Part shown: positions 2,186 through 31,179 of the stretch, in pieces | How positions within the stretch are numbered: the stretch's first letter is position 1 | How the letters are laid out: each line of letters starts with the position of its first letter | IMG/VR virus record: IMGVR_UViG_3300033987_000092 | Location: 1 to 58,177 of that record | Strand: one strand, 5' to 3' | DNA length: 58,177 nucleotides | Source: a virus | Lineage: Duplodnaviria > Caudoviricetes | Position numbers and translations under genes: made by a program | The notes under the pieces: generated by a model | What the model was told of the DNA's origin: nothing | Seen by the model: the letters and a program-made list of their open reading frames with translations, nothing else | Database searches by the model: none

Positions 2186-2187
2186 TT

Positions 2188-2634: not shown

Positions 2635-2648
2635 AGTGGAAATAGCTC

Positions 2649-3071
2649 CTATTTCCTATGTTTTTTTGGAGTGTATTTTTCCTTTGCTTCTTTTTTTGCC
2701 AACATCATACCCTCCTCTAGTGCAGCCATAACCTTCGCCAAGGTTTCCTCATCATCGATTTCGCCATCAAAAGCCATCCCTAAGGATGTCAACATAAGGG
2801 CTTTAATTCGGTTAGATTCCTCTTTTATCTTTGCAATATCTTTTTCAGTGAGTTTTGCCGTATATTTCTTATCCTTTCTGACATTACTAAGACCAAGTAT
2901 ATAGTCGGCACTCTCATCAAATATTTCTACAAGTTTCTTTATAGTCTCATCTGTTAAAGGAACTCTACCTGTTTCATATTTTGACACTGCTGATTTTTGA
3001 ACCTTTAATCTATGACCTAAATCCTCTTGTGTCCAACCTTTTTCCTCTCTTAATTGCTTAATTCTATTCAT
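2649..3071 (-). CDS. XRE-family prophage repressor (CI/ImmR-like)
   Basis: RIKQLREEKGWTQEDLG..SAVSKYETG HTH; start moved to ATG 3071 behind GAGGTGGTG RBS. Confidence 0.92.
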   Translation of the reverse strand: MNRIKQLREEKGWTQEDLGHRLKVQKSAVSKYETGRVPLTDETIKKLVEIFDESADYILGLSNVRKDKKYTAKLTEKDIAKIKEESNRIKALMLTSLGMAFDGEIDDEETLAKVMAALEEGMMLAKKEAKEKYTPKKHRK

Positions 3072-3097
3072 ATTCACCACCTCAAGCAGAATTATAT

Positions 3098-3209
3098 AGT
3101 ATCTGATTAGGAAATTATACAATTGTGTCCTAATCAGATACTATTTATAAAAAAACTATTGACATATTCCTAATAGGATACTATAATTAAAGTATCCCAA
3201 TAAGACACT
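3098..3209. promoter_or_regulatory. Lysis/lysogeny switch: four 19-bp operators
   Basis: AGTATCTGATTAGGAAATT (3098), TGTGTCCTAATCAGATACT (3124, inverted), ATATTCCTAATAGGATACT (3164, inverted), AGTATCCCAATAAGACACT (3191). Confidence 0.8.
3159..3187 (+). promoter_or_regulatory. Early lytic promoter (perfect sigmaA consensus)
   Basis: TTGACA-17 bp-TATAAT upstream of cro; operator 3164-3182 fills the spacer. Confidence 0.9.
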
Positions 3210-7335: not shown

Positions 7336-7724
7336 TGTTAGCCTTAAAAATTACCACTAATTCTGAGGTTGAAACAATAGATGTTAAGGAACCTTTACAC
7401 AAAACAATCCGAGAAGCTCTCGGCGGTTACTTGGAAGTAGTGCATCCCAAGAGGCTTCCCAAGCCTTACTGCATGATAGTCGATGAGGAAGGCCTCCTCA
7501 AGGAATTAGAACTTAATCCGTTAGGATGCTACTTGTATGAAACTGATATTCATAGACAACCGATAGTAGGGGACATCATCATAATGCGTGAGAAATTTAC
7601 CCTTGATGGCATAGCTCTTGATGGACTTCATGAGTCTGACATCGATTCAATTATGAGAGAAATTGGTGGCATTTTAGAACGATTTAAGCAGTATTACAAA
7701 TGCATGAAAGAAGGTGCAAACTGA
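7335..7724 (+). CDS. DUF3846-like protein
   Basis: 'LGGYLEVV..MIVDEEGLLKEL.LN..IVGDIII' pattern; start ATG 7335 overlaps previous TGA. Confidence 0.75.
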   Translation: MLALKITTNSEVETIDVKEPLHKTIREALGGYLEVVHPKRLPKPYCMIVDEEGLLKELELNPLGCYLYETDIHRQPIVGDIIIMREKFTLDGIALDGLHESDIDSIMREIGGILERFKQYYKCMKEGAN

Positions 7725-12537: not shown

Positions 12538-13405
12538 TGTGGTTACATCTTTGGAAGCAGAGCAATATGGCATAAAATGCAAAAAGAAACCACCAGAACC
12601 AAAGGAGTGCGAGTTTTGCGGAAAGACATTATACCATGAGGGGGTTATCCTGTTTGATCAGGTAGCTTTCTGGTCACCAGCTCCCCAGCGTTGCACCTGT
12701 GAGGCAGCGGTAAAGTATTGGACTGATTATGAGGGAAAACAGCGTCAAGCCAAGGAGCAGGAGGAATTAGCAAGAAAAAGGGCAGCAATGCAGGAAAAGA
12801 TAAAGAAGTTGCTTGGACAAAGCGGCCTCAAAAAAAGGTTTCTTAACAGGACATTTGGAAACTACAGAGCAAGAACACCGGAGCAGAGAAAGGCTTACGC
12901 TGTGGCAAAGGCATATGCTGACAGGTTTTCGGAGTTTTATGAGAGAGGGGAAGGCCTATACATAGAGGGGACAAATGGCACCGGGAAAACTCATTTAGCA
13001 GCTGCTATAGCACTGCAGCTCATTCATCAGGGCATACCGGTAATTTGCAAGACATCAATAGATCTGCTGGATGATATCAAGAAAGCTTTTGATGATAACC
13101 AGGTGAGCGAATATGAAGTGCTAAAAGTCTACAAGCAAGTGGATTTGCTGATAATTGATGACCTGGGCAAGGAGCAATGTACTGATTGGTCCATGTCAAC
13201 CCTTTATTCCATCCTCAATGACCGGTACGAGGATATGAAGCCGACAATCATAACCACTAATTTCAATGAGGATGACCTCATAAGGAACCTAACTCCAAAA
13301 GGTTATGAAAATAAAAAAATTGTGGCAATTATAAGCCGCCTGCGTGAGGTATCAACGGTTATTACCATGGCCTGGGAGGATTATAGGAGTGGTGGCTATG
13401 AGTAA
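12467..13405 (+). CDS. DnaC/IstB-like AAA+ helicase loader
   Basis: Zn-binding CEFC..CTC, Walker A GTNGTGKT, Walker B LLIIDDLG, 'TIITTN'. Confidence 0.9.
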   Translation: MEQISKLLYSPVLDQAQDSEKRSNVVTSLEAEQYGIKCKKKPPEPKECEFCGKTLYHEGVILFDQVAFWSPAPQRCTCEAAVKYWTDYEGKQRQAKEQEELARKRAAMQEKIKKLLGQSGLKKRFLNRTFGNYRARTPEQRKAYAVAKAYADRFSEFYERGEGLYIEGTNGTGKTHLAAAIALQLIHQGIPVICKTSIDLLDDIKKAFDDNQVSEYEVLKVYKQVDLLIIDDLGKEQCTDWSMSTLYSILNDRYEDMKPTIITTNFNEDDLIRNLTPKGYENKKIVAIISRLREVSTVITMAWEDYRSGGYE

Positions 13406-14387
13406 AAATCAAGCTATTTCAGATTACCGGAAAGAGATTGTAAAGACAATAAGCGATTTGGGTTATAGGCACTCAACCTGGCAGGTGCCTTCGGACTTCG
13501 TTGAAATGTCAGCTATAGCACTGAGTAATACGGTTGACTGGATCCACAGAGAAGAAAGGGAGAAACGGTACCTTGAAATTATAAATACTTACAGCAAGAG
13601 TGAGCAGGAAAGGTTCCCTGAAATGCTTGCATACCTGACAAACGCCATGGAAGATAGCTTGGTTCTTAATGGAGGACCTACTGATATTCTCGGTCAGGTA
13701 TTCCACGAGTTAGAACTCCACAACAAGTGGAAAGGGCAATTTTTTACACCAGTGCATATTTGTGAAGCTATGGGAATGATTACAGTTTCCGATAAAGCAC
13801 AAATGGTTAAAGAAAAAGGTTTTATAACAGTATGTGAGCCATGTGTCGGAAGTGGTGCTATGGTATTGGGCTTTGCAAAAGCTATGAAAGCAAATGGGAT
13901 GAATTATTGCTCACAAATGGTGGTTACTGCTCAGGATATAGATTTGAAATGTGTTCATATGGCATATCTGCAGCTTTCATTGTATGGAATACCGGCAGTG
14001 GTTATCCATGGTAACACCTTAACTGTAGAAGAATGGTCCAGGTGGTACACCCCGGTATACATGCTTGATGGCTGGATATGGAGGCAGCAATGCGGGATGA
14101 CAGATGCCAGAAATGCTGAAGATGAAGTTATCAAAAGAAGCATGGATCCCATGTATGATAAGCTCCGCAGAGTACTCGGGTATGAGAAAAATGTTACCGA
14201 AACTGCAGAAAACGCTATTGAAGAGCCTGAAATTGTTGCTGAACCTACTCAAATTGTTATTGAAAGCGCTGTACCTGTGAAAGGTATCAGTGAAATTTCT
14301 GGCCAGTCAAGACAGATTAAAGGCAAGAAGAAAGGGCGGGTAAAGGAAGAGTTTGACCAGTTGTCACTCTTTGATATAGCCAAATGA
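13398..14387 (+). CDS. N6-adenine methyltransferase-like protein (SAM-binding half, no NPPY)
   Basis: GQFFTP and EPCVGSG motifs, QDID, HGNTL; ends in QLSLF. Confidence 0.75.
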   Translation: MSKNQAISDYRKEIVKTISDLGYRHSTWQVPSDFVEMSAIALSNTVDWIHREEREKRYLEIINTYSKSEQERFPEMLAYLTNAMEDSLVLNGGPTDILGQVFHELELHNKWKGQFFTPVHICEAMGMITVSDKAQMVKEKGFITVCEPCVGSGAMVLGFAKAMKANGMNYCSQMVVTAQDIDLKCVHMAYLQLSLYGIPAVVIHGNTLTVEEWSRWYTPVYMLDGWIWRQQCGMTDARNAEDEVIKRSMDPMYDKLRRVLGYEKNVTETAENAIEEPEIVAEPTQIVIESAVPVKGISEISGQSRQIKGKKKGRVKEEFDQLSLFDIAK

Positions 14388-14400
14388 AAGGAGAGTATAC

Positions 14401-15222
14401 ATGAGTAAGATATTCGGAGATTTTAATAATCTATATGACCTTAATGAAACAGCAAGAAATTTAAGGGGAGCAGGGGAGTATGATGATCTGCTGGTTTTAG
14501 GCTTGGAGAACGGGCTGGATGAGGACACAGTAAAAAAGTTTTATGAAGGAGATAGCCAGTTCCTTATTGAGGAGCAGGAGAAAGTTCAGAAGTGCCGTGT
14601 ATGTGGCTGCAGCTGGAATAATCCTTGTGAAGGTGGTTGTTATTGGGTAGAGCCGGATCTGTGCAGCAAATGTGCGGAGGAAATGAAAAAAGCAACTACT
14701 TACACTGAAGAAAAACAGGAACCGCAAACAGAAACAGCTGAAGAAAAGCTCAAAAATGAAGCTGGTACGGCCAAGAATGATACGGTACCTACTCAGCCTA
14801 TATCGAAGCATCTTATAGCAAAGTGCAAAGAGGATGCCGAGTTTGCAAAGCTGGTACTCCAGCCTCATAAGACGCTTGAAAAATGCTTTAATCATGTGGA
14901 AAGTGAAGCTCGGAAGAAACTGAATAACCGCACCGGGTGGATTAATGATAATGAAGTCTATGCTTGGGCAGAGGATTATTACAGGTTGGATGACGCCGAA
15001 CTGGAGCGGATTAAAGCTGAAAATAAAAAGAAAGAGGAAGAGAAGAGGAAAAAGGAAGCTGAAAAGGCAAAGAGCGCTCCAGCAGTGGAAAAGTCAACCC
15101 CGACCAAAGAGGCACCAAAGAAGGTTGAAGCTGCACCTTCAAGAGATAAAGCGAAGAAATCTAAGCATGAACCGGAAGGACAGTTATCATTGTTTGATTT
15201 TGGGGGTGCAGGTGTTGAATAA
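14401..15222 (+). CDS. PcfK-like protein with Cys-rich insert
   Basis: 'CKEDAEFAKLVLQPHKTLEKCF..EARK..DNEVYAWAEDYY' and C-terminal GQLSLFDF; precedes PcfJ-like gene. Confidence 0.7.
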   Translation: MSKIFGDFNNLYDLNETARNLRGAGEYDDLLVLGLENGLDEDTVKKFYEGDSQFLIEEQEKVQKCRVCGCSWNNPCEGGCYWVEPDLCSKCAEEMKKATTYTEEKQEPQTETAEEKLKNEAGTAKNDTVPTQPISKHLIAKCKEDAEFAKLVLQPHKTLEKCFNHVESEARKKLNNRTGWINDNEVYAWAEDYYRLDDAELERIKAENKKKEEEKRKKEAEKAKSAPAVEKSTPTKEAPKKVEAAPSRDKAKKSKHEPEGQLSLFDFGGAGVE

Positions 15223-17212
15223 AAGAGCACTAGCAAAATTGCCGGAAAAGGCGGCAAAAGAGGAATATATAAGTCTTGCAAAGAGAGTTGAAAATGCTAA
15301 ATACTTTGTTGCTGCAATAATTACAGAGGTTGAGAATGAAAAAATACTGCTCTTGAATTTCTATTCCCAATGCGACCTGAGAGAAGAAAAAACAAGAGCA
15401 GCCTTCAGGGTATTCCTGAATCAAGATGATTATATCACACAGGACCTAAGAACTGTCAAATCAAAGTGGAAAACAGCTTCATTAAAAAGCTTGGTAGACG
15501 CATGGCAATGGCCGAAATGGTGTGTCTGTGTGGATGATCAATCTGAAAAAGCAATTAGAAGCTTTATTAAATGCGGTAAAACTGTATTTGCAGGGCTTGA
15601 GGATTTTCAAGAAGCCATTATGAAGAAACGCCTTGCCCAAAAGCACAAAAAAATTACTGACAAGATTGATAAACAGATGGAGATGGTACCGGAGCTCCCG
15701 GGGGATTTTAACAAATGGATAGAGGAAACGGTCTTGTTTAAGAGCAGATATATTTATTATGAGTATAAATCCTCCAGGAAGCTCATGAAAGGCTACTGCA
15801 CCTACTGTAAAACGGATGTTTTGGTAGAAAAGCCAAGGCATAACCAGGAGGGGATATGTCCCAACTGCAAGAGCCCAATAACATATAAGGCACTTGGAAA
15901 ATCAAAAAAAGTGCATGATTATGCTGAAGCTGCTCTGTTTCAGAAATTTGATAAAGGCTTTATCATCAGGTATTTCAAAGTGGGCAGAGAATTTAATGAG
16001 CATTACAGAAAGCCTAAAACTCATTGGTTTGAAGCAACAAGAGATTTCTACTATATAAGTAGCGATAGAATAAAGTCTTATGAATGGGCTAATTTTAAAC
16101 AGACAGGAAATGTAAGGTGGTGTGATTATAGAGGTAAATGGTATTTTCATAATACAGCTGTGTATGATGCCAACCTTGATGATGTTTTGAAAGATACAAA
16201 GTGGAAGTATTCAGCGCTTAAAGAGTTTGCTACTCATAAGCCAGGGATAGGATTTAATGTTGACAGATATCTATCAGCTTATAAGGACTATCCGTTTATT
16301 GAGTATTTTGTTAAGTTAAAGCTCTACAGGCTTACCTATGAGGTAGTGCAAGGGCATATGGTAACAAACTGGATTAACGCAAAAGGTAAAAACATGCAGG
16401 AAATATTAAAGATTTCTAAAAAATCATTGCCTTTGCTACAGAAGATAGATGCTTCCTTAGAAGAATTAAGGCTTGTCCAAGTGATGGAGAGAGAAGGGCT
16501 GAACTTGTCACCGGAGCAGATAAGGTATATATGTGATAATCTTGGCTGTGCAACCGGACTCCTTGAACTGTCAAGATATACCACTGTGAATAAGGCTCTT
16601 AATTATCTTTCTGTTCAAGCTGAAAAAATCAAGAAAAATCAAGATCAGCGGAATTATATGCATTTAGAAAGGGATACCAAGCTATCAATTGCTTATCGTG
16701 ACTGGATGGACTATATAGGGTTTTGCAAGGAACTGAGATATGACCTAAAAAATGAATTTATACTTTACCCCAAAAACCTAAAACAGGAACACGATAGAGC
16801 TGCCAAGTTGGTACAGGCCAAACGTGATAAGGAAGAAGCCCGAAGGCAGAGAAAGATGAAAAATAAAATAAAGGTCATGGCCAAAGAACTCACTGAAAAG
16901 TATGGGATGGAATATAAGGGACTTGTAGTAAGAGCTCCTCAAAATGCAGATGAGTTGATTAAAGAAGGACAAATTCTACACCATTGCGTTGGTACCTATA
17001 TAAAACAAATTGCAGAGGGCATAACAGTAGTTTTATTTATCCGAAAGGTTGAAACTCTGGATGAGCCGTACTGCACTATGGAAGTTAAAGATGGAAAGAT
17101 AGTCCAATGCAGAGGTAAGAACAATACAGATATGACAGATAAACTTAAAAGCTTCTTAAATAAATTTGAGAAAACAAAGCTGGTTCCGCAATTACAAAAA
17201 AAGGCAATGTAG
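15215..17212 (+). CDS. PcfJ-like protein
   Basis: CTYC..CPNC Zn ribbon; C-terminal 'DWMDY..PKNLKQEHD..EGQILHHCVGTY..QCRGKNN'. Confidence 0.85.
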   Translation: MNKRALAKLPEKAAKEEYISLAKRVENAKYFVAAIITEVENEKILLLNFYSQCDLREEKTRAAFRVFLNQDDYITQDLRTVKSKWKTASLKSLVDAWQWPKWCVCVDDQSEKAIRSFIKCGKTVFAGLEDFQEAIMKKRLAQKHKKITDKIDKQMEMVPELPGDFNKWIEETVLFKSRYIYYEYKSSRKLMKGYCTYCKTDVLVEKPRHNQEGICPNCKSPITYKALGKSKKVHDYAEAALFQKFDKGFIIRYFKVGREFNEHYRKPKTHWFEATRDFYYISSDRIKSYEWANFKQTGNVRWCDYRGKWYFHNTAVYDANLDDVLKDTKWKYSALKEFATHKPGIGFNVDRYLSAYKDYPFIEYFVKLKLYRLTYEVVQGHMVTNWINAKGKNMQEILKISKKSLPLLQKIDASLEELRLVQVMEREGLNLSPEQIRYICDNLGCATGLLELSRYTTVNKALNYLSVQAEKIKKNQDQRNYMHLERDTKLSIAYRDWMDYIGFCKELRYDLKNEFILYPKNLKQEHDRAAKLVQAKRDKEEARRQRKMKNKIKVMAKELTEKYGMEYKGLVVRAPQNADELIKEGQILHHCVGTYIKQIAEGITVVLFIRKVETLDEPYCTMEVKDGKIVQCRGKNNTDMTDKLKSFLNKFEKTKLVPQLQKKAM

Positions 17213-17227
17213 ACAGGGGGTTATATT

Positions 17228-17455
17228 ATGTGGATAAGAAGCCAGGATAGACGTTCATTTGGTGATTACAAAGAAGTTTATATTGTTGAAGCCTCAATAA
17301 TGGGAGTTTCAGGAGCTGCAGATGATACTAAGCTGGGAGACTATGATACACCAGAAAGAGCTTTGGAAGTGATAGATAAATTAGAGAACCATATTCGTGA
17401 CAATAGAACGATTTTTTATATGCCCAAGGAGAAGGGGGGAAGTAATAATGAATAA
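17228..17455 (+). CDS. Hypothetical phage protein
   Basis: MWIRSQD...LGDYDTPERALEV; AGGGGG RBS. Confidence 0.7.
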   Translation: MWIRSQDRRSFGDYKEVYIVEASIMGVSGAADDTKLGDYDTPERALEVIDKLENHIRDNRTIFYMPKEKGGSNNE

Positions 17456-18461
17456 GAGCAAAATAGACTGGACTGACTACTCATGGAATCCCATAACCGG
17501 GTGCAAACACGATTGCCCATACTGCTATGCAAGGAAGCAGTCCGCAAGATTCTCAGGAGACATCAGGTTAAATAAGGCATCTAATGACTGCCAGTATGAT
17601 AATGAAAGAGGATTATATGTGTTAGATAAGCCATTTATTACCCGGGAGAACAGGGCATTGAATTATCCTTATGGATTTGAACCTACGCTGCACATGTACC
17701 GCATGGATTGGCCCGGGAAAGTGAAAAATGGCAGAAATATATTTGTTGGGTCGATGGCTGATGTTTTTGGAGATTGGATACCTGATGAATGGATCTCTAT
17801 GATATTTGAAGCCTGTAAGAAATACCCGCAGCACAATTATATGTTTCTTACAAAAAATCCAAAGCGTTATGAAGAACTGCTTAAAAGAGATATTCTCCCT
17901 ACAGCTGATAATTTTTGGTATGGCACAACTGTACCTACTCCGGATATGGAATTTTTCTGGAATGAAAAAGTGAATGTATTTATAAGCATTGAACCTATTC
18001 TTGCACCATGGTCCGATGAAGCAGCTGATGAATTAGTTGAAAAAGTGGATTGGGTAATTATCGGAGCTGAAACAGGAAATCGGCGGGATAAAGTTATTCC
18101 GGAGAGGGATTGGATTCTTAGACTTATTAAGAAGTGCAAAGAGAAAATTGTCCCGGTATTTTTGAAAGATAATCTGCTAGATATTATGGGCAAAGGTATC
18201 GATTTAAAAGCATTGCAGGAGTTTCCGGAGATCCTTAAACGGCAAGTAAGTGTGGAACAGCAAACAGAGAGTGCCTGGTATAAAAAGATGTACGGTCAAT
18301 GTGCTTTATGTAAAGAGGAAAAGCTGAAGAAGGAAATGATTGCATTGCTGGCCAGAGCTAAACGGGGAACCGGTGCAAAGCAATTAGCATATGTCTGCAG
18401 AGGTTGTTACGAAAAGCTTTGTGATAATTTGGGGGTTACTCCCCCTGAACTGGACGTTTAG
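17448..18461 (+). CDS. Phage Gp37/Gp68 (DUF5131) radical-SAM-like protein
   Basis: SKIDWTDYSWNPITGCKHDCPYCYA (CxxxCxxC), FVGSMADVF, FLTKNP, SIEPIL, WVIIGAETG. Confidence 0.88.
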   Translation: MNKSKIDWTDYSWNPITGCKHDCPYCYARKQSARFSGDIRLNKASNDCQYDNERGLYVLDKPFITRENRALNYPYGFEPTLHMYRMDWPGKVKNGRNIFVGSMADVFGDWIPDEWISMIFEACKKYPQHNYMFLTKNPKRYEELLKRDILPTADNFWYGTTVPTPDMEFFWNEKVNVFISIEPILAPWSDEAADELVEKVDWVIIGAETGNRRDKVIPERDWILRLIKKCKEKIVPVFLKDNLLDIMGKGIDLKALQEFPEILKRQVSVEQQTESAWYKKMYGQCALCKEEKLKKEMIALLARAKRGTGAKQLAYVCRGCYEKLCDNLGVTPPELDV

Positions 18462-23022: not shown

Positions 23023-23436
23023 ATGAGAAAATTGAAATTTAAAGTGTGGGATAAAAAGAATAAAAAGTGGGTTGAGAATGATAAATCTTTACTATGTCAG
23101 TTAGTAATATGGAAAACAGCTACAACCTTTGAATTGTCATCTGGAGAGGATTTTGAAATAGTACAATTTACTGGTATAGAGGATAAAAAAGGTAATGATG
23201 TGTACGAGAGAGATATTATAAGGGTAAAGTATCGTAATCCAGATAGTGAAGATGGTCTTCCTATATGGTATGAAAATCATGAAGTAGGACCATTAGAAGT
23301 GCTAATATTTTTTGAAGATTTTATCAGAGAAGGGGAAGTAATAGGCAATGTATTCGAAACTCCAGAATTATTAAAAAAAGTAAGCGATCTTAAATGGAAC
23401 AGTAAAATATTTCACAAAAAAATGAGGAGGAAATGA
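23023..23436 (+). CDS. YopX-family protein
   Basis: RKLKFKVWDK..QFTGIEDKKGNDVYERDI..EVIGNVFETPELL. Confidence 0.88.
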   Translation: MRKLKFKVWDKKNKKWVENDKSLLCQLVIWKTATTFELSSGEDFEIVQFTGIEDKKGNDVYERDIIRVKYRNPDSEDGLPIWYENHEVGPLEVLIFFEDFIREGEVIGNVFETPELLKKVSDLKWNSKIFHKKMRRK

Positions 23437-23439
23437 GAC

Positions 23440-23571
23440 ATGAATCCTGTTACTGCAATAGTGATATTTTTAATTGTAATTTTAATAATTTTAGGATTTA
23501 TTATTTGGGCTTGGTTTTTTCCTGATTACCCAAAGACTGATAATAGTTGGAGGACAAGGACTGGAAGATAG
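23440..23571 (+). CDS. 43-aa single-pass membrane peptide, missing from ORF track
   Basis: GAGGAGG RBS; MNPVTAIVIFLIVILIILGFIIWAWFFPDYPKTDNSWRTRTGR. Confidence 0.55.
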   Translation: MNPVTAIVIFLIVILIILGFIIWAWFFPDYPKTDNSWRTRTGR

Positions 23572-23669
23572 ATAAAAAAGAGAGAGCTTTCGCTCCCCTA
23601 CAATACCCTAATACCATTATATAAGAAATGGTATTTATTATCAATACAATACAAGGAGGGGCGCAAGCT

Positions 23670-24227
23670 ATGGGAAAAAGCACATTGGCACAAGCTGAAA
23701 TCATTAAATTGGCAGCTGAAGCAGGAGCCAAGGCCGCACTTGAAGCCTTGGAAAAGGAGAAAAAGAAGGCCCATAAGTCCCGGCATGACCGAAGACTTAG
23801 AAACACGAAGCTATTACTGAGGAATTTCCGCATGTTTAAAGAGCATACCGAAAATGCAGTATTTGAAGTTTCTCAGTTGGATGAGAATGCGATAGATATA
23901 CTTGATATGATGTGGGAATACTCAAACGACAGTGAATTGTTCGTTGAAAGTATCAAAAAGAGTGTAGCCAGGACTAAAATTATCATGACCCATGTAATAG
24001 ACATGCTTGCATTGTATGAGGCCTATTGCATGAAATCTACTAAACCAGAGGACAGCAGGCGTTATCGGGTTATAAATAAACTCTACATATCGGAGCAGCC
24101 TATGACAGTAAGGGAAATTGCAACTATGGAGGGGATAGATGAACGGACAGTCTACAAGGATGTAGATGCAGCATGTGAGAGGTTATCGGCACTTATATTT
24201 GGCATTGACGGATTGAAGAAAGATTGA
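23670..24227 (+). CDS. Late-gene transcriptional regulator (ArpU/RinA-like, sigma region-4-type HTH)
   Basis: 'RRLRNTKLLLRN' N-terminus; C-terminal HTH 'TVREIATMEGIDERTVYKD'; last early gene before late promoter. Confidence 0.75.
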   Translation: MGKSTLAQAEIIKLAAEAGAKAALEALEKEKKKAHKSRHDRRLRNTKLLLRNFRMFKEHTENAVFEVSQLDENAIDILDMMWEYSNDSELFVESIKKSVARTKIIMTHVIDMLALYEAYCMKSTKPEDSRRYRVINKLYISEQPMTVREIATMEGIDERTVYKDVDAACERLSALIFGIDGLKKD

Positions 24228-24235
24228 AAACCGAA

Positions 24236-24280
24236 GGCAAAAAGAGGGCATTGACTGGGCAGTTTATCATATGCTACGAT
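24236..24280 (+). promoter_or_regulatory. Putative late promoter with phased GGCA boxes
   Basis: TTGACT(24251)-18 bp-TACGAT with extended -10 TG; GGCA at 24236, 24247, 24258 (11-bp period). Confidence 0.6.
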
Positions 24281-24314
24281 GTAGGTGTAAAATTCTATAA
24301 TCGCAAAACGCCTT

Positions 24315-24348
24315 AAACCGTCATTCAAGGAAGAGTGGCGGTTTTTTT
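24315..24348 (+). terminator. Intrinsic terminator/attenuator just after the late promoter
   Basis: AAACCGTCATTC-AAGGAA-GAGTGGCGGTTT hairpin (G-U pairs) followed by T7. Confidence 0.7.
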
Positions 24349-24363
24349 ATTGGAGATGATTCT

Positions 24364-24534
24364 ATGAAGGAGGGAAATTGCAAAAAGTGCGTTTGGAAAA
24401 CAACGCCCGGTGGAAACATTGTGGTCTGCTCCTTTCCTCAATGTTTTTACCGCTCCGAAAACAAAGCTAAATCGCCAATTAGCAGAGTTTCCGGGGATAA
24501 TCGGGGAGAAAACCCAAAGAAAAAGGAGGATTGA
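24364..24534 (+). CDS. 56-aa four-Cys protein, missing from ORF track
   Basis: GGAG RBS; MKEGNCKKCVWKTTPGGNIVVCSFPQCFYRSEN...; stop 4 nt before symporter ATG. Confidence 0.55.
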   Translation: MKEGNCKKCVWKTTPGGNIVVCSFPQCFYRSENKAKSPISRVSGDNRGENPKKKED

Positions 24535-24538
24535 AAAA

Positions 24539-25918
24539 ATGTATGGGATGATCGTACTACTTGCCTATTTTCTATTGATGATAGGCGCAACAGTAATTTT
24601 GACAAAAAGAGAGTGCAGCATTGAAGGGTTTTATGTCGGCAACAGGAACATGGGAACTGTAAGCTCCGCAATGAGTATAGCAGCAACATGGATATGGGCG
24701 CCGGCATTATTTGTGTCGGCAGAGAAAGCATATGTGAACGGGATACCGGGACTATTTTGGTTTTTAATACCTAATATAGCCTGCTTATTAATATTTATCC
24801 CGTTCGCAAAGAAAATCCGGAAGGTGATGCCAAGAGGAATTACCTTATCCGGATTTATGGAGGAGAGATACAACTCCACAAAAGTAAAGAAAGTCTATTT
24901 GTTTCAGCTTGCAAGCTTAACAATACTGTCTACAGGTGTACAGCTGCTTGCAGGTGGAAAAATCCTGAGCAATATTACAAACCTACCATTCAGTATAATT
25001 ACCATCATACTGGCTGTAATAGCTTATTCATACTCGCAGTTTTCCGGTATAAAGGCTTCAGTAATAACGGATGCGATTCAAATGGTTCTTATACTGGCAG
25101 CATGTCTGATATTTGTACCTTGGGCAATCAATATGGATGATGGAATAACTCATCTGATAAAAGGATTGTCCGGAGTATCGGGACAGTATACAGGATTATT
25201 CAACGCCAAAGGTATTGAGATATTCTTTGGTTTTGGCTTGCCTACTGCAATAGGTTTGATAGCTGGACCATTCGGGGACCAATGCTTTTGGCAAAGGGCT
25301 TTTTCGATTAAAGAAAGCAAAATCGGGAAGGCGTTTTTTATAGGCACATTATTATTTGCAGTTGTTCCACTTTCTATGGGAATACTCGGTTTTATTGCGG
25401 CCGGCTCAGGATTTATTGCAGCTGACAAAGGGGTAGTCAACTTCGAATTGATTACACATCTGTTCCCTGAATGGGTTATGCTGCCGTTCCTGTTCATGGT
25501 TATATCCGGGTTAATTTCTACTGTAGACAGCAACCTTTGCGCTGCAGCTTCCCTTACAACAGACTTTGTTAAAGATGAGAGCCTAAAAGTTTCAAAAGGT
25601 GCTATGATACTGCTACTTGCCTTTGGTATAGGTATAGCAAATATCCCAGGATTAAGCATTACTCATCTATTTCTGATTTACGGGACTGTAAGAGCATCTA
25701 CGCTTTTACCGACTGTAATGACACTGAAAAACATTAAACTTTCAGCAAAAGGAGTTTATACAGGAGTAATAACTGCATTGCTTCTGGGGCTTCCTGTGTT
25801 TGCCTACGGCACTATTTATAACCTGTCACTATATAAAACCATTGGGAGTTTAACAACGGTGCTGACAGCGGGAATAATTGCCATCTTGATGGCTAAACGG
25901 GAGGTGTACAAAGCATGA
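24539..25918 (+). CDS. Sodium:solute symporter (SSS) family transporter
   Basis: Many TM segments; 'GFYVGNR', 'SIAATWIWAPAL', 'TLSGFMEERY', 'GIKASVITDAIQ', 'DQCFWQRAFS', 'ISTVDSNL'; start moved to ATG 24539 after AGGAGG. Confidence 0.9.
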   Translation: MYGMIVLLAYFLLMIGATVILTKRECSIEGFYVGNRNMGTVSSAMSIAATWIWAPALFVSAEKAYVNGIPGLFWFLIPNIACLLIFIPFAKKIRKVMPRGITLSGFMEERYNSTKVKKVYLFQLASLTILSTGVQLLAGGKILSNITNLPFSIITIILAVIAYSYSQFSGIKASVITDAIQMVLILAACLIFVPWAINMDDGITHLIKGLSGVSGQYTGLFNAKGIEIFFGFGLPTAIGLIAGPFGDQCFWQRAFSIKESKIGKAFFIGTLLFAVVPLSMGILGFIAAGSGFIAADKGVVNFELITHLFPEWVMLPFLFMVISGLISTVDSNLCAAASLTTDFVKDESLKVSKGAMILLLAFGIGIANIPGLSITHLFLIYGTVRASTLLPTVMTLKNIKLSAKGVYTGVITALLLGLPVFAYGTIYNLSLYKTIGSLTTVLTAGIIAILMAKREVYKA

Positions 25919-26703
25919 AAACGGTTCTTAGCAAAAAACAAAGTATAAGTAATGAAGACTGGATCCAGGCCATGAGTCATATTGAAGAATATGTGACAAA
26001 GGAAGAGCTGGATCTTCTGACAGCCATTACCGTAGATGAAATAAAAAAAACCGTTGCCGGCAAAAAGGCAGCCTATGCATGGAGCGCAGGAAAGGATAGC
26101 TTAGTCCTCGGTCATATATGCGAAAAGGCAGGAATTAAGGATTGCATGCTTGGTATATGTAACCTTGAATATCCTGCTTTTTTAGATTGGATAGAAAAGA
26201 ACAAACCGGATAAGCTTGAAATTATCAACACAGGACAAGATCTGGACTGGTTAGCCAAGCATCAGGATATGTTATTCCCTCAGGACAGCTCAAAGGCCGC
26301 AAGGTGGTTTTCAATCGTGCAGCATGCAGCGCAAAGGAAGTATTACAAAGAGCATGGGCTTGATATACTCATCCTCGGAAGGCGCAGAGCTGACGGAAAT
26401 TATGTGGGCAGAGGCGGTAATATTTACATTGATGGGAAAGGGGTAACCAGGTACAGTCCTTTAGCAAACTGGAAGCATGAGTGCATACTTGCATATATCC
26501 ATTATCACAAATTGCCTGTTCCGCCTATATACAATTGGCCTAACGGTTATAAATGCGGCACTCATCCCTGGCCTGCAAGACAATGGACCAAAGATGTAAT
26601 GCATGGATGGGAAGAGATATACACAATCGATCCAAGTATTGTGGATAAAGCTGCTGAAAAAATTGAGAGTGCCAGAAGATTTAAGGAGGGGATGGGCAAA
26701 TGA
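25915..26703 (+). CDS. PP-loop / PAPS-reductase-fold adenine nucleotide alpha-hydrolase
   Basis: WSAGKDS PP-loop, GRRRADG, SPLANW..ILAYI..PIY. Confidence 0.85.
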   Translation: MKTVLSKKQSISNEDWIQAMSHIEEYVTKEELDLLTAITVDEIKKTVAGKKAAYAWSAGKDSLVLGHICEKAGIKDCMLGICNLEYPAFLDWIEKNKPDKLEIINTGQDLDWLAKHQDMLFPQDSSKAARWFSIVQHAAQRKYYKEHGLDILILGRRRADGNYVGRGGNIYIDGKGVTRYSPLANWKHECILAYIHYHKLPVPPIYNWPNGYKCGTHPWPARQWTKDVMHGWEEIYTIDPSIVDKAAEKIESARRFKEGMGK

Positions 26704-27305
26704 AAATAACAAAGATGAACATTGAGGACCTTCGTACCCCTGAGCGGAATATACGTATTCATACAGAAAAACAGATTGAGGAATTTGTAAGAAGTATTAA
26801 AATGTTTGGACAGATCCGGCCAGTAGTTATTGATGAGAACAATACGATACTGGCGGGAAATGGCTTGGTTATGGCACTGAAAAAGGCAGGACTAAAACAG
26901 GTTGATGTTTACCAGATGGATGGGCTGACAGAGAACCAGAAGAAAAAACTTATGATTGCGGATAATAAAATATTCAGCTTGGGGATTGAAAACCTTGATA
27001 CACTAAATGCTTTTTTAGAAGAGCTCGGAAACGATTTGGATATTCCCGGCTTTGATGAGGAAATCTTAAAATCAATGGTAGCGGAGGCAGAGGAAGTAAC
27101 AGAGAAGCTTTCTCAATACGGTACCCTTGATGAAAAAGAGATTGAAAGCATAAGGAGTAATTCAGCTAAAAAAGAAGCTCTTATTGAAAATGCCGGCAAC
27201 ACGGACAATAATTCTATATCAGATATACAGGAGGATGAGGTAGAAACGGCAGATATAAAAAGGTATGTTATCTGTCCAAAGTGTGGTGAGCAGATTTGGC
27301 TATAA
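26700..27305 (+). CDS. ParB/Srx N-terminal domain protein with C-terminal Zn-ribbon motif
   Basis: NIRIH..QIEEFVRSIKMFGQIRPVVIDE..ILAGNG..IADNK; CPKCG. Confidence 0.85.
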   Translation: MKITKMNIEDLRTPERNIRIHTEKQIEEFVRSIKMFGQIRPVVIDENNTILAGNGLVMALKKAGLKQVDVYQMDGLTENQKKKLMIADNKIFSLGIENLDTLNAFLEELGNDLDIPGFDEEILKSMVAEAEEVTEKLSQYGTLDEKEIESIRSNSAKKEALIENAGNTDNNSISDIQEDEVETADIKRYVICPKCGEQIWL

Positions 27306-28450
27306 AAAGATGTGAAGCCAGCATTAACGTAGTAAAGGCAGCCGAAATCCGGATTAAAAATGTATTCGGAAATGGGCTGCCTGTTTATATGTCATTCTCC
27401 GGAGGGAAAGACAGCCTGTGCATGGGACAACTGGTGCTTAACCTGATCCAGCAGGGGCAGATAGATCCAAAGCAGCTGACCGTACAGTATATAGATGAGG
27501 AAGCTATATTCCCCTGCATTGAAAAAACAGTGATGAACTGGAGAAAGAAGTTTATGCTCGTGGGAGCCAAGTTTGAATGGTTCTGCTTAGAGGTAAAACA
27601 TTTCAACTGCTTTAATGAACTGTCCAATGATGAAACCTTTATATGCTGGGATAGTGAAAAGCAGGATGTATGGGTAAGGCAGCCACCTTCTTTTGCCATT
27701 AGAAGCCACCCGCTATTATTCCCCAGAAAAGACGCATACCAAGACTTCCTGCCGCGTGTATGCTCTGATGGCATTACAATAACCGGTATCAGGACAGCAG
27801 AATCAGTGCAAAGACTTCAAAACATTGCATCCATGACAAAAGCGGGCAGAAACATTACAAACAAGAAGCAGATATTCCCGATTTATGACTGGACCAATAA
27901 TGATGTGTGGCTATACCTTAAAGAGCAGCAGGTAGATATCCCGGACATTTACCTTTACCTATGGCAATCAGGAACACCGAAAGGACAATTACGGGTATCA
28001 CAGTTCTTTTCTGTAGATACTGCAAAAAGCCTGGTTAAGATGAATGAGTATTACCCGGACCTCATGGAAAGGGTTATACGCCGGGAGCCGAATGCATACC
28101 TTGCAGCTTTATATTGGGATAGTGAAATGTTTGGCCGGAGAACAAAAAAGAGGAAGCAGCTGGAGAAGGATGAGAAAACCAGGGATTATAAAGCAGAGCT
28201 TCTTAAGCTTTTTGGCAACATGGAAGAGTATTTTACCACAAAGCACAAACTGTATGTTGCAACCAGGTATCGCAACTTCTTTCTGCAGGTTCACACCATA
28301 GTCAATCAAAATGACTGCCGGGAGATATATGAAGGCTTAATATCAGGGGATCCCAAATTGCGTACATTCAGAGCACTTTATCAGCGTATTTTCGGTAGAT
28401 ACATTACCGAAGCAAAGAAAGCAGAGAAGGGAGGAATGGCTGTTGATTAA
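27296..28450 (+). CDS. IbrA-like PP-loop (PAPS-reductase-fold) protein
   Basis: SFSGGKDS, IDEEA, GIRTAESVQR, PIYDW..DVW, LRVSQ. Confidence 0.88.
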   Translation: MAIKRCEASINVVKAAEIRIKNVFGNGLPVYMSFSGGKDSLCMGQLVLNLIQQGQIDPKQLTVQYIDEEAIFPCIEKTVMNWRKKFMLVGAKFEWFCLEVKHFNCFNELSNDETFICWDSEKQDVWVRQPPSFAIRSHPLLFPRKDAYQDFLPRVCSDGITITGIRTAESVQRLQNIASMTKAGRNITNKKQIFPIYDWTNNDVWLYLKEQQVDIPDIYLYLWQSGTPKGQLRVSQFFSVDTAKSLVKMNEYYPDLMERVIRREPNAYLAALYWDSEMFGRRTKKRKQLEKDEKTRDYKAELLKLFGNMEEYFTTKHKLYVATRYRNFFLQVHTIVNQNDCREIYEGLISGDPKLRTFRALYQRIFGRYITEAKKAEKGGMAVD

Positions 28451-28967
28451 CGAAAGATTGTTTTCTCCGCTTAAGACCCTGCAGTGGGTAGATCGGAATA
28501 AAATAAAGCCTAATGATTACAACCCGAACAAGGTATCCAAGGAAAACTTGAAGCTTCTTACCCAGTCTATACTTGTAAACGGATGGACACTGCCGATAGT
28601 GGTAAGGCCTGACATGACAATTATTGACGGATATCATCGGTGGACGGTAGCAGGGGAAGAGCCTCTCCTTTCTGCCCTCGGAGGTAAAGTCCCAATTGTC
28701 ATTGTTGAGCATGAGGATGAGAGCGGCAATATTTACGGTACTGTAACCCATAACAGGGCAAGAGGTACTCACCTGCTGGAGCCTATGAAGGCAATAGTGC
28801 AGCGGTTATTAGCGTCAGGCAAGTCCATTCAGGAAGTAGGGAAGCAGCTCGGCATGAAGCCAGAGGAGATATTCAGGTTATCAAACTTCTCCAAAGAAGA
28901 TTTTTTGCAGATGATGACAAAAAATGTAAAATCCTATAGCAACGCAGAGTTCATCACAAAGATGTAA
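28443..28967 (+). CDS. IbrB-like ParB/Srx protein
   Basis: PNDYNPNKV..GWTLPIVV..IIDGYHR..HNRARGTH plus C-terminal HTH. Confidence 0.88.
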   Translation: MINERLFSPLKTLQWVDRNKIKPNDYNPNKVSKENLKLLTQSILVNGWTLPIVVRPDMTIIDGYHRWTVAGEEPLLSALGGKVPIVIVEHEDESGNIYGTVTHNRARGTHLLEPMKAIVQRLLASGKSIQEVGKQLGMKPEEIFRLSNFSKEDFLQMMTKNVKSYSNAEFITKM

Positions 28968-29015
28968 GCGTTTTTTCAGATTCAAGCGAATATTGAAGTG
29001 AGATGAGGTGGTGAT

Positions 29016-29762
29016 GTGCCAAGAGCAAGAAGTCCTAACAGAGAAAAAGCTCGTGAGCTGTGGCTTGCCTCGGGGAAAAAACGCTTGCTCAAGGACATAG
29101 CCTCAGAACTCGGAGTATCAGAAACACAAGTACGGAAATGGAAAAGTCAGGACGGGTGGGAAAAGGTAACGTTACCAAAAGAGGAAGAAAAAAAGAAAAG
29201 TAACGTTACCAAAAGAAAGCGTGGTGGACAACCGGGTAATAAAAACGGTGTCGGCCACGGAGCTCCTAAAGGAAATAAGAACAATTACAAGCATGGCCTG
29301 TATGAAAGAATCTATTGGGATACTCTTGATGAGGAAGAACAACAGATGATACAGGCCATGAATTATGAAGAGGAGAAACTGCTTCAGGAGCAGATAGCTT
29401 TGTTAACAGTCAGGGAGCGCCGATTACTTAAGACTATAGCAGAGTATAAAGAGAAGAAAGGCGGTCTGGCTTTAGAGAGCGTTATCCAGAGAAAGCTTGA
29501 AATTGACGGTAATATCATTCAGGATGATTACCAGACTCAGACCGAAACTACCACCCGTACCATTTCCACATTTGAGGTTATACAAAAACTTGAAGCGGAG
29601 CTGACACGAGTACAGGCCAAGAAGACCAGGTGTATTGAGGCTTTAAATAAGCTGAGGATTGAAAGACAGAGAATAGATGACGAACAAAAGGGTAATGACC
29701 TGGTTAACGACTGGATACACGGCGTAATGGATGGTGATGATTATGAAGAAGAAGAGGAATAA
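29016..29762 (+). CDS. terS: Terminase small subunit
   Basis: MPRARSPNR..LKDIA.ELGVS..VRKWKS.D.W HTH; GGQPGNKN..GAPKGNKN.KHGLY; precedes TerL. Confidence 0.88.
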   Translation: MPRARSPNREKARELWLASGKKRLLKDIASELGVSETQVRKWKSQDGWEKVTLPKEEEKKKSNVTKRKRGGQPGNKNGVGHGAPKGNKNNYKHGLYERIYWDTLDEEEQQMIQAMNYEEEKLLQEQIALLTVRERRLLKTIAEYKEKKGGLALESVIQRKLEIDGNIIQDDYQTQTETTTRTISTFEVIQKLEAELTRVQAKKTRCIEALNKLRIERQRIDDEQKGNDLVNDWIHGVMDGDDYEEEEE

Positions 29763-31179
29763 GCCAACATCACGCCGGGAATTCTTCAAGATGCGCATTC
29801 CTGAATACCGCAAAGACATTGAGTTGTTTGCAAAAGAGGTTTTGGATTTTACTCCTGATGACTGGCAGAGGGCGGTGTTCAAAGATGTAGTTGAGCATAA
29901 CCGTATAACCGTAAAGTCTGGCCAAGGTGTAGGAAAGACCAGTGCTGAAGCGGTTATTTTATTATGGTTTTTGTGCTGCTTCCCATTTCCAAGAGTAGTA
30001 GCAACTGCACCTACTAAGCAGCAGCTCCATGATGTGCTTTGGTCGGAGGTTGCAAAGTGGCAATCGAAAAGCCCGCTGCTCACTCATATACTCAAATGGA
30101 CCAAGACATATATCTATATGATTGGGTATGAAAAAAGGTGGTTTGCAGTAGCAAGGACAGCAACCAAACCCGAAAACATGCAGGGATTTCATGAAGACAA
30201 TATGCTTTTTATCGTGGATGAGGCCTCCGGTGTTGCTGATCCAATCCTGGAAGCAATACTTGGTACTCTTTCTGGTAAAAATAATAAGCTTCTGATGTGC
30301 GGAAATCCCACTAAAACATCAGGTATTTTTTATGACAGCCATACTGTAGACCGGGCAATATACCGTTGCCATACTGTTTCATCTGCAGACAGTCCAAGGA
30401 CAAATAAAGAGAATATTGAAGCGCTGATCCGCAAGTATGGAGCCGAAAGCAATGTAGTAAGGGTGAGGGTATACGGAGAGTTTCCCCTTCAGGAGGATGA
30501 TGTATATATTCCTCTATCTCTCATCGAAGCCAGTATAATGAGTGAGCCTGAAGAAAAACCTGTAGAATCCATTGACATTGGGTGCGATGTTGCCAGGTTT
30601 GGAGATGACAAGACTGTTATAGGCTTCAAGGTGAATGAAAAGGTTGAGTTTTATAAAAAGCTCAATGGACAGGACACAATGCGGACAGCTGCAGATATTG
30701 TATTACTCGGGCAGATACTAATTGATAAGCATAAGTATAAATACAAGATTCCTATAAAGGTTGATGATGGCGGTGTTGGAGGTGGAGTGGTAGACAGGCT
30801 GAGACAGATAAAACGGAGCAATCCTGCACAGTATTGGTGGATGGAAATAGTTCCGGTCAAATTTGGTGTCAGAATAAAGCACAAATATTTCTATGATTCT
30901 ACTACCTACATGATGAATGTGGTTAAGAGCTTGCTGAGCAAAAAGGATGATGAAGGGAATCCAAAGCCGGTGGAGCTTATATTACCCAACGATAACGATC
31001 TGGTCGGACAGCTGTCATGTCGTAAATACACTATGACAGATAACAGTAAAATCAAGATAGAAAGCAAGGAAGATATGAAAAAACGCGGTTTATCCAGTCC
31101 TGATGAGGCTGACTGCGTTCTTTTATTGTGCTTGCCTGTATCTATGAAAGACCGAAAGAAAGGAGATGATAAGGCTTGA
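29743..31179 (+). CDS. terL: Terminase large subunit
   Basis: Walker A GQGVGKT, Walker B IVDEA, GNPT, nuclease DVARFGDD, SPDEAD. Confidence 0.95.
   Translation: MKKKRNKPTSRREFFKMRIPEYRKDIELFAKEVLDFTPDDWQRAVFKDVVEHNRITVKSGQGVGKTSAEAVILLWFLCCFPFPRVVATAPTKQQLHDVLWSEVAKWQSKSPLLTHILKWTKTYIYMIGYEKRWFAVARTATKPENMQGFHEDNMLFIVDEASGVADPILEAILGTLSGKNNKLLMCGNPTKTSGIFYDSHTVDRAIYRCHTVSSADSPRTNKENIEALIRKYGAESNVVRVRVYGEFPLQEDDVYIPLSLIEASIMSEPEEKPVESIDIGCDVARFGDDKTVIGFKVNEKVEFYKKLNGQDTMRTAADIVLLGQILIDKHKYKYKIPIKVDDGGVGGGVVDRLRQIKRSNPAQYWWMEIVPVKFGVRIKHKYFYDSTTYMMNVVKSLLSKKDDEGNPKPVELILPNDNDLVGQLSCRKYTMTDNSKIKIESKEDMKKRGLSSPDEADCVLLLCLPVSMKDRKKGDDKA

Follow-up and report, generated by a model that had tools for sequence, protein, structure and literature searches.

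The virus record IMGVR_UViG_3300033987_000092 of IMG/VR (Duplodnaviria; Caudoviricetes), which was analysed over its whole length of 58,177 bases (hereafter the window; completeness estimate 93%), carries a cassette of five plus-strand genes that ends directly 5' of the terminase genes terS and terL. Open reading frame (ORF) calling places these genes in the order transporter, PP1, ParB1, IbrA-like and IbrB-like. The first encodes an SSS-family secondary transporter of 459 residues, belonging to the phage-borne subfamily phrog_20720 (24539..25918), and is followed by PP1, a predicted small PP-loop ATP pyrophosphatase of the PAPS-reductase fold that is an optional member of the cassette and carries the motifs SAGKDS, GRRRADGN and CGTHPWPARQW (25915..26703). 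ParB1 (26700..27305) combines a ParB-N domain with an acidic linker and a C-terminal CPKCG (phrog_620, 2.8e-51; phrog_498, 2.8e-32), the IbrA-type PP-loop protein (27296..28450) has a helical C-terminal half and the motifs SGGKDS, IDEEA, GIRxAES, PIYDW, REPNAYLAALYWDSEMFG and GDPKLR, and the IbrB-type ParB/Srx protein (28443..28967) contains NDYNPN, DGYHRW and THNRARGTH. Stops and starts overlap all along the cassette, by 4 nucleotides (nt) between transporter and PP1, 4 between PP1 and ParB1, 10 between ParB1 and IbrA, and 8 between IbrA and IbrB. The terminase genes, recognized as ORFs with family matches, occupy 29016..31179 (terS 29016-29762, terL 29731-31179; plus strand), and the portal gene comes after terL. 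A preliminary description of this DNA had proposed the five genes, their families and their overlapping ends upstream of terS, and ORF calls, Pfam and PHROG matches bear it out in this respect. Its start of the cassette at 24364 does not hold: this is a 56-residue ORF (24364-24534) for which no conserved equivalent precedes the transporter in any of 67 unique related regions. The true start of the transporter, whose ORF opens at 24410, is the ATG at 24539, which is preceded by GGAGG. The cassette is best explained as one functional unit that heads the late/packaging operon of the phage, one of anaerobic Clostridia.

The association of the transporter with the enzymes is repeated in its relatives. 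Among the best 80 of 141 transporter relatives in IMG/VR, loci were judged if they extended at least 3.6 kb downstream; in 69 of the 69 judged loci ParB1-IbrA-IbrB comes next on the same strand, with PP1 in 57 and without it in 12, the other 11 loci being too short. Bacterial genomes, reduced to one genome per species (80 kept of 100), provided 68 transporter loci with room. The same three genes are present in 65 of these, PP1 accompanying them in 59 and missing in 6, and the three exceptions (3/68) are truncated remnants with internal deletions that cut ParB1, IbrA, or PP1 together with IbrB. The bacterial carriers are Clostridia or unclassified gut, rumen and digester metagenome-assembled genomes (MAGs), one MAG being labelled Bacteroidales. 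In the reverse check, motifs of the IbrA subclade were found on 539 IMG/VR stretches. Upstream sequence of at least 3 kb was available for 59 of the 80 nearest relatives of IbrA, and the transporter is present in 56 of these; the three loci without a full transporter are truncated, one retaining only the last 83 residues of it. This IbrA-first set overlaps the transporter-first IMG/VR set, so that the two are not independent. Co-occurrence in other genomes had been named at the outset as the observation on which the idea of a coupled system would stand or fall, and the transporter and the ParB/PP-loop genes prove to be linked near-obligately in both directions. The transporter-linked gene set is widespread among related viral and Clostridia loci, and a functional coupling of importer and cassette enzymes is strongly supported and can be held with considerable confidence. 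No terminator or promoter was found between transporter and PP1. A search of longer proteins for transporter-PP1 or PP1-ParB1 fusions gave 10 matches, with no true fusion among the three inspected, which were rejected as artefacts of read-through or deletion, with frameshift junk between the domains or a transporter cut after transmembrane helix (TM) 8.

A second membrane protein is found in the same slot in other phages. In Faecalibacterium phage FP_Taranis, the gene order is RinA-like activator, gp35 (a “transporter membrane protein”), ParB, IbrA, IbrB and terS. Taranis gp35 (2157-3158 of its locus piece) is a multi-pass membrane protein of 333 residues for which neither Pfam nor PHROG gave a family. 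It was rejected as a clear SSS homologue (BLASTP E 0.01; hhalign probability 2%, E 0.022). The hhalign comparison with SSS proteins is colinear over 193 columns, and 14 of the 30 nearest ESM Atlas clusters are SSF-like (score 0.92); gp35 is probably a very divergent SSS-like protein. Its relatives, the best 80 of 141 in IMG/VR, are 77-100% identical and form a narrow group. Of the loci with room, 70/72 contain ParB1-IbrA-IbrB, and 14 of the 70 contain PP1. As a second, divergent membrane protein is present with the same partners, it is the slot, and not merely the gene, that is conserved. Mycobacterium phage Pipefish has the order ParB, two small genes, a PAPS-reductase-like gene, ParB and terL, and lacks the transporter. 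The earlier view of a duplicated enzyme set does not survive these comparisons, as PP1 is optional, being missing from 12/69 viral, 6/65 genomic and 56/70 Taranis-type cassettes. Where PP1 is missing, ParB1 remains with IbrA and IbrB. Because PP1 comes and goes, ParB1 is constant, and the Pipefish trio occurs without a transporter, the system consists of a core, ParB1-IbrA-IbrB, with add-ons. PP1 is rare outside the cassette context, matching 1 of 50,697 phage records versus 219 for IbrA.

The transporter matches Pfam PF00474 with 82 bits (cut-off 22.8) over residues 74-385 of the long ORF and phrog_20720 from end to end (2e-187), and its invariant transmembrane motifs are SIAATWIWAPALF, GPFGDQCFWQRAF and SGL(I/L)STVDSNLCA. 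The transporter stays below the cut-offs of the NCBIfam SSS family model (TIGR00813, 100.9 versus 184 bits) and of the named subfamilies (PanF, 68.6 versus 328; PutP, 55.2 versus 515.5), and the automatic ESM Atlas name “pantothenate permease” is unsupported, with PanF and PutP scores below their cut-offs. In four host genomes the prophage copy of the transporter scores 757-785 bits on the family profile versus 33-45 bits for the best host SSS paralogues, and an exhaustive search gave 1,755 transporter clusters (50% identity) at E<=1e-3, 635 at <=1e-10 and 253 at <=1e-30. Judged by its sequence relationships, the transporter is a member of a large, old phage-borne subfamily and not a recent host gene. 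In a digester phage relative (58.9-kb contig), both flanks of 24534-25912 are 90-95% identical to the window, and the transporter has the same length and is too diverged to be matched at 90% identity; the transporter allele seems to have been exchanged or to be evolving faster than its neighbours.

The nearest solved relatives of the transporter are the DUR3 urea symporters (E 9e-15), followed by CHT1 (choline), NIS and SMCT1. The available text on AtDUR3 describes a urea site made of W93, W95, T98, Y117, Q124, N305, Y315 and W338, and proton residues D312, E402 and H222 (PMC11840088). These residues were compared in a HMMER alignment to AtDUR3 in which the chain numbering is that of the paper, with invariance assessed over 31 members of the transporter family. 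W93, W95, D312 and W316 are retained as invariant W51, W53, D247 and W251; T98, Y117, Q124, N305, Y315 and W338 correspond to A56, F75, C82, L240, F250 and F273, E402 to N332 and H222 to Q181, and the replacements are invariant in the 31 members. Thus the transporter was rejected as a DUR3 urea symporter on residue criteria, most of the urea hydrogen-bonding and gating residues being replaced, and its substrate is probably not urea itself. The likeness to DUR3 lies in the tryptophan dyad of TM1, the aspartate of TM6 and the next tryptophan, in the best sequence match in the PDB, and in one distant transporter family member that its source names a urea-proton symporter; in contrast, the transporter has about 460 residues and lacks the C-terminal domain of DUR3. 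A pocket of DUR3-like architecture that is more hydrophobic and aromatic and holds an acidic residue suggests a small non-urea solute, possibly cationic or amide-like. The best non-phage relatives of the transporter (profile search of a 401-genome sample, 180-227 bits) have as neighbours urea-carboxylase-like and hydantoinase/caprolactamase-like genes, an amidohydrolase and an aminotransferase, or an ArgE/DapE deacylase, which points faintly to small nitrogen compounds. For distant relatives, single-sequence scans for context gave nothing, and the broad alignment contained no searchable stretch.

Both PP-loop proteins fall within Pfam PF01507. PP1 (43.6 bits) has SAGKDS at residue 57 and an invariant CGTH at residue 214, and the IbrA-like protein (47.3 bits; phrog_2302, 3.7e-94) has SGGKDS at residue 35; these two signatures and further residues of the catalytic region are invariant. 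PAPS reductases carry their catalytic cysteine in a C-terminal ECGLH, and APS reductases have a CC...CxxC iron-sulfur (Fe-S) motif. The Fe-S motif of APS reductase is also quoted in the available part of a virome preprint (10.1101/2021.01.05.425418). Neither PP1 nor IbrA contains a CG[LIV]H/ECGLH, CC or CxxC motif. On the cysH equivalog TIGR00434 they reach 24.5 and 18.5 bits versus a cut-off of 165.1, on the CysD equivalogs 24-34 bits versus cut-offs of 195-413, and all NCBIfam equivalog cut-offs are widely missed. The surmise in the preliminary description that neither is a true PAPS reductase is therefore upheld, with the catalytic and Fe-S motifs absent and the cysH score far under its cut-off. 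AF2 models (predicted local distance difference test, pLDDT, 92.8 for PP1 and 80.7 for IbrA) gave Foldseek matches to PAPS/APS reductases, CysD, TtuA, NcsA, TilS, the ATPPase domain of GMP synthetase, FAD synthase and LarE at E 1e-8 to 1e-4 and TM-scores of 0.3-0.5, CysD being second-best for PP1. A PDB sequence search with IbrA returned nothing below E 0.089. On the models, PP1 and IbrA are generic PP-loop ATP pyrophosphatases, an assignment that gives the class of chemistry (transfer of the ATP alpha-phosphate, with an AMP-activated intermediate) and not the substrate. The transporter-linked set of IbrA proteins conserves four cysteines (C74, C97, C105 and C117).

The ParB-fold proteins point to DNA. 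IbrB scores 28.9 bits on PF02195 versus a cut-off of 26.3, matches phrog_2159 at 8.9e-69 and conserves the P-motif arginine within DGYHRW; the DGxHR and HNRARG motifs are common to all IbrB homologues examined. ParB1 reaches 21.6 bits on Pfam ParB_N (cut-off 26.3), and aligns with the N-terminal region of phrog_498, a “DNA methyltransferase” family, and with positions 8-151 of the PADLOC type II methyltransferase model MTase_II (6.7e-17). Its P-motif position reads AGNG, with no arginine. The zinc motif reported earlier in ParB1 stands in part: the C-terminal CPKC is there, with C192 and C195 invariant, and this gives two ligands, not a full zinc site. ParB1 thus appears to be a ParB-N domain of the kind found fused to DNA methyltransferases in phages. 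Other IbrA/IbrB pairs adjoin SNF2 helicases, in the early region of S. thermophilus phage CHPC1062 and in 3/5 other places of phrog_2302 in the 401 sampled genomes. This SNF2-joined subfamily is 22-27% identical to the IbrA of the window and has SNF2 in place of ParB1 and the transporter, and at one SNF2-joined locus IbrB and IbrA are separated by a weak N6/N4 methylase-like gene. Complex prediction scored 0.53 for IbrA with ParB1 versus 0.15 for the best of three controls, which the tool grades as weak support; its mark is reached by 58/80 solved complexes and 2/110 mismatched pairs, with only 7/80 and both mismatches at <=0.60. The runs had at least 50% contact agreement and a partner pLDDT of at least 69. 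Because ParB1 is of the methyltransferase type, IbrB has its motifs, SNF2 genes occur as neighbours and IbrA and ParB1 form a weakly predicted complex, DNA is favoured, on indirect evidence, as the target of the cassette enzymes.

The place of the cassette before the terminase is not tied to one type of terminase. From 10 listed loci without a window-like terS, five were sampled, and in 5/5 terS and terL of other PHROG families are found directly after IbrB (57+15 four times, 6299+2 once); the cassette therefore precedes at least three unrelated packaging modules. This position fits either action at packaging time or merely the head of a late operon. Directly 5' of the cassette, here and in many related loci, is the gene of a phrog_1558 protein with a C-terminal helix-turn-helix (HTH), a candidate late regulator (23628..24227, plus strand; phrog_1558 4.7e-57, HTH_11/PF0610-like matches weak). 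Two promoter-like sites on the same strand, TTGACT-18-TACGAT with TG and TTATCA-18-TAAAAT (24251..24293), are followed by a terminator-like hairpin and T run (24315..24350, plus strand; hairpin at 24315-24344) that separates them from the transporter. What had been called a late promoter thus amounts to a consensus match at 24251-24293 with nothing beyond consensus, and the terminator-like hairpin comes next. Promoter-like sites in the region number 17 versus 15.4 expected, which is not significant alone. A hairpin with T5 like that of the window occurs in 36/67 unique upstream regions versus 10/68 inside SSS genes and 0/64 inside IbrA genes. The strong hairpin and T run are within about 40 nt of a promoter-like site and before the first late gene, an arrangement that resembles a late leader of the Q/antitermination type, with the phrog_1558 HTH protein encoded upstream of it. 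A riboswitch in the 311-nt leader was rejected, as Rfam at E<=10 gave chance-level matches only, the best (E 0.35) being far below gathering.

Three metatranscriptome libraries hold contigs of a 90-99% identical relative of the phage. The contigs span parts of the leader and transporter start, PP1, the PP1-ParB1 junction, IbrA, IbrB and terS, and bridge the IbrA-IbrB and IbrB-terS junctions, which is weak evidence of cassette transcription. No RNA-library contig lies on 23600-24220 or most of the transporter, an uninformative result as the relative's transporter is more than 10% diverged and contigs drop rare sequence, and the positions 24317-24336 at which contigs begin do not amount to a mapped start of transcription. 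Among direct and inverted repeats in 23400-30000, no parS-like array was found in or beside the cassette. The sole standout is inside terS (29162-29216), where a 21-nt sequence occurs twice (95% identity, spacing 34 nt), each time with the perfect 12-bp palindrome GGTAACGTTACC in it; this is a candidate for a pac site or for the binding of a protein.

The reading preferred here, to which a probability of roughly 0.45 is given, is that the importer and the ParB/PP-loop enzymes together modify phage DNA with a small solute from outside the cell. During the late phase of infection, the transporter would import a small polar solute, most likely a nitrogen-containing one (urea-, amide- or amine-like). 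IbrA, brought to DNA by its ParB-type partners, would use ATP to adenylate a position in the phage DNA, and the solute, perhaps after PP1 has processed or activated it, would displace AMP by chemistry of the TilS/GuaA/DndC type. The genome would be marked in this way during replication and packaging, probably against host nucleases. The core would thus be a PP-loop ATP pyrophosphatase (IbrA) held by two ParB-fold proteins (ParB1 and IbrB) with the transporter in front, and PP1 would be a second, small PP-loop enzyme that in most versions is placed between transporter and core. The gene set, its motifs, linkage, position and distribution are observations from which this scheme starts; the direction of uptake, the class of solute, DNA as the target and the purpose are supplied by the scheme. 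A bolder version, which is possible although on balance doubtful, is that of a new class of DNA hypermodification in which a ParB-guided PP-loop enzyme adenylates a base or the backbone at packaging, the imported solute replaces AMP, and different lineages plug different importers, or else supply enzymes, into the core.

Several points weigh against DNA modification by an imported solute. ParB1, lacking the P-motif arginine, may be only a scaffold, and the score of the IbrA and ParB1 complex lies in the weak range. The fold matches do not separate PP-loop enzymes that act on DNA, on tRNA or on small molecules. A family-wide Fe-S site in IbrA was rejected, as the four cysteines are not kept in the IbrA proteins of Taranis, Pipefish, the E. 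coli phage and the S. thermophilus phage, and Fe-S sulfur chemistry like that of DndC or TtuA is therefore unsupported. The likeness of the transporter to DUR3 is distant (about 25% identity over parts) with the urea-contacting residues mostly changed, and SSS members also carry anions (NIS and SMCT1 are among the matches), so that an anion is possible as the solute. The metatranscriptome contigs may include DNA carry-over. In addition, the literature searched reports no measured modified base, substrate or activity for any IbrA/IbrB-type protein. Their role is said to be genetic, that of a “co-activator of prophage gene expression”, a description known from database annotation only.

Some of these points lead to other explanations. 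The enzymes might act on tRNA or other RNA, on the nucleotide pool or on a small signalling molecule, for example in anti-defence, with the solute still a co-substrate and the ParB folds serving as NTP-binding or regulatory subunits. The PP-loop fold matches, which include the tRNA enzymes NcsA, TtuA and TilS as well as small-molecule enzymes such as GMP synthetase, FAD synthase, LarE and CysD, are consistent with this idea, as is the missing canonical P-motif arginine of ParB1. According to the available text of PMC12704722, ParB folds bind ATP, CTP or GTP and are also found in fusions with RNA-related domains. However, ParB1 is of the type present at the N-terminus of DNA methyltransferases, other IbrA/IbrB pairs are found beside SNF2 DNA translocases, and the place directly before terS, across three terminase families, fits a role in DNA or packaging; a target other than DNA is therefore regarded as unlikely, if worth serious attention. 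The annotated role of IbrA/IbrB, together with the location of the cassette, which has a candidate late regulator, a promoter-like site and a terminator-like hairpin ahead of it and terS after it, and the palindrome that occurs twice inside terS, could instead indicate that ParB1-IbrA-IbrB is a regulatory or packaging accessory (a late co-activator, or a helper of pac or terminase) that makes no covalent modification, the transporter sensing or exploiting a solute for timing. Such a function is improbable, as the invariant PP-loop (SGGKDS) and catalytic-region residues of IbrA and PP1 argue for enzymatic turnover, an accessory has no need for a dedicated, co-inherited transporter plus a second enzyme, and IbrA/IbrB pairs are also found away from terminases, as in phage CHPC1062.

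Sulfur metabolism is the function that database labels would suggest, PP1 and IbrA then being viral CysH/CysD-like enzymes that boost sulfate assimilation, with the transporter importing a sulfur compound. Both proteins pass the Pfam PAPS_reduct threshold, PHROGs classes them as auxiliary metabolic genes, CysD is the second-best fold match of PP1, and in the available part of the virome preprint cysH, with a clade that bears DUF3440 counted in, ranks first in abundance among viral organosulfur genes (10.1101/2021.01.05.425418). Nevertheless, the equivalog scores are far apart (cysH, 24.5 versus 165 bits; CysD, 24-34 versus 195-413), the ECGLH cysteine and CC...CxxC Fe-S motif are missing, no cysteine desulfurase is present in the phage (PF00266 is absent from the record), PP1 and IbrA always occur with ParB-fold proteins before terS, and the transporter is unrelated to known sulfate and thiosulfate carriers and far from host paralogues, all of which makes this explanation very improbable. 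The transporter could also be an independent moron, serving host nutrient uptake or superinfection exclusion and adjacent to IbrA/IbrB by chance. The ends of phage late operons are common moron sites, and in the digester phage relative the transporter has diverged much more than the sequence on either side of it, a pattern that an exchangeable module would produce. Yet the near-obligate linkage in both directions, the overlapping junctions, the lack of a terminator or promoter between transporter and PP1, the restriction of partnerless loci to truncated remnants, and the second, divergent membrane protein with the same partners in the same slot leave chance adjacency with hardly any credibility.

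Modification of DNA with an imported solute also needs to be set beside known systems. IbrA/IbrB pairs of phages and prophage islands (phrog_2302 and phrog_2159), as in an E. coli phage, and their K-12 homologues YbdN/YbdM resemble the cassette in that the gene of a PP-loop protein whose C-terminal half is helical overlaps a ParB-fold gene downstream of it. The IbrA of the window is 26% identical to the annotated E. coli phage IbrA over 84% of its length, and SGGKDS, PxYDW, NDYNPN, DGxHR and HNRARGxH are motifs common to the IbrA/IbrB homologues; Pfam DUF3440 has no match in the window's IbrA at E<=0.01. The cassette differs in its addition of ParB1, a dedicated transporter and usually PP1, and in its fixed place before terS. 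In E. coli, ybdNM is repressed by YbdO (available text of PMC9068703). The Dnd and BREX type 4 systems, with the ParB-like DndB, the PP-loop/[4Fe-4S] protein DndC and BrxP (available text of PMC12839542), likewise pair a PP-loop enzyme of the PAPS-reductase family with a ParB-fold protein in a DNA-modifying system, and IbrA has weak profile matches to DndC (6e-9) and BrxP (2e-6) over about 55 residues. However, IbrA scores 28.3 versus 290.4 bits on the DndC equivalog TIGR03183 and has no family-wide cysteine cluster, Dnd is without a transporter, and the phage lacks a DndA-type cysteine desulfurase (PF00266, whole record). DndD and DndE were not among the 20 window proteins scanned in Pfam, a scan that included no search by name.

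A precedent for phage DNA modification that draws on an imported precursor, with a PP-loop enzyme and a ParB-like ATPase, is found in the 7-deazaguanine systems. As described in the available text of PMC6884629, the preQ0 importer YhhQ is encoded by some of the phages whose DNA contains 7-deazaguanine and has no fixed linkage to any phage group, and these systems include the transglycosylase DpdA, the ParB-like DpdB of bacterial Dpd and the PP-loop protein QueC (PMC6884629, PMC12839542). The cassette differs in that its PP-loop proteins are of the PAPS_reduct type and not QueC, its transporter is of the SSS family and not YhhQ, and its linkage is near-obligate; TGT/DpdA (PF01702) has no match in the 58-kb record, 14/14 control genomes being positive. 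The cassette thus lacks the features that define the Dnd/BREX type 4 and the 7-deazaguanine systems, which are its nearest understood relatives in kind. TilS and other N-type ATP pyrophosphatases offer, by analogy, a possible chemistry for the PP-loop fold, in which, as proposed here, a base carbonyl would be adenylated and then attacked by an amine. With TM-scores of 0.3-0.5 and no membership at the sequence level, TilS serves as a working analogy and not as a family assignment. The claim that no system of this architecture has been characterised agrees with the literature searched, in which no paper was found that characterises the cassette or notes the transporter linkage, while the supplementary tables of virome and ParB studies may list its genes. 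In the available text of a 2025 survey of ParB-fold proteins, term counts gave no mention of PAPS, IbrB or terminase.

ParB and PP-loop genes by terminases, annotated as “IbrA/IbrB” or “PAPS reductase”, are among the commonest unexplained genes of tailed phages and are routinely counted as sulfur metabolism; virome papers, in their available portions, label such PP-loop genes cysH or PAPS reductase. Such a label of sulfur auxiliary metabolic gene is unlikely to be right for PP1 and IbrA. The transporter-locked version implies that the enzymes need an extracellular compound, and turns an opaque gene pair into a testable pathway in which the solute leads to the product. If that product is indeed a DNA mark, phages of Clostridia from gut, rumen and digesters would have a novel anti-restriction chemistry, and the enzymes would form a new class for site-directed DNA derivatisation; if it is not, the sulfur label still needs correcting. 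Cultured material exists in Faecalibacterium phage FP_Taranis, with the divergent membrane protein, and in prophages of type strains with the SSS version (Anaerotruncus colihominis DSM 17241, Acetatifactor muris DSM 23669 and Agathobaculum desmolans ATCC 43058).

Other genes of the window may also be concerned with DNA or defence. A DUF5131/radical-SAM-like protein is encoded at 17397-18461 and matches the PADLOC candidate defence components PDC-M41B (1e-39) and PDC-M30B (8e-39). A single ORF of 1285 residues at 7700-11557 joins a calcineurin-like phosphoesterase (SbcD-like) to an SMC_N/SbcC-like ATPase. In the early region, 13344-17212, PcfK-like and PcfJ-like genes come after a gene for an N6 DNA methylase-like protein, so that, apart from the cassette, at least one DNA methylase of conventional type is encoded by the phage.

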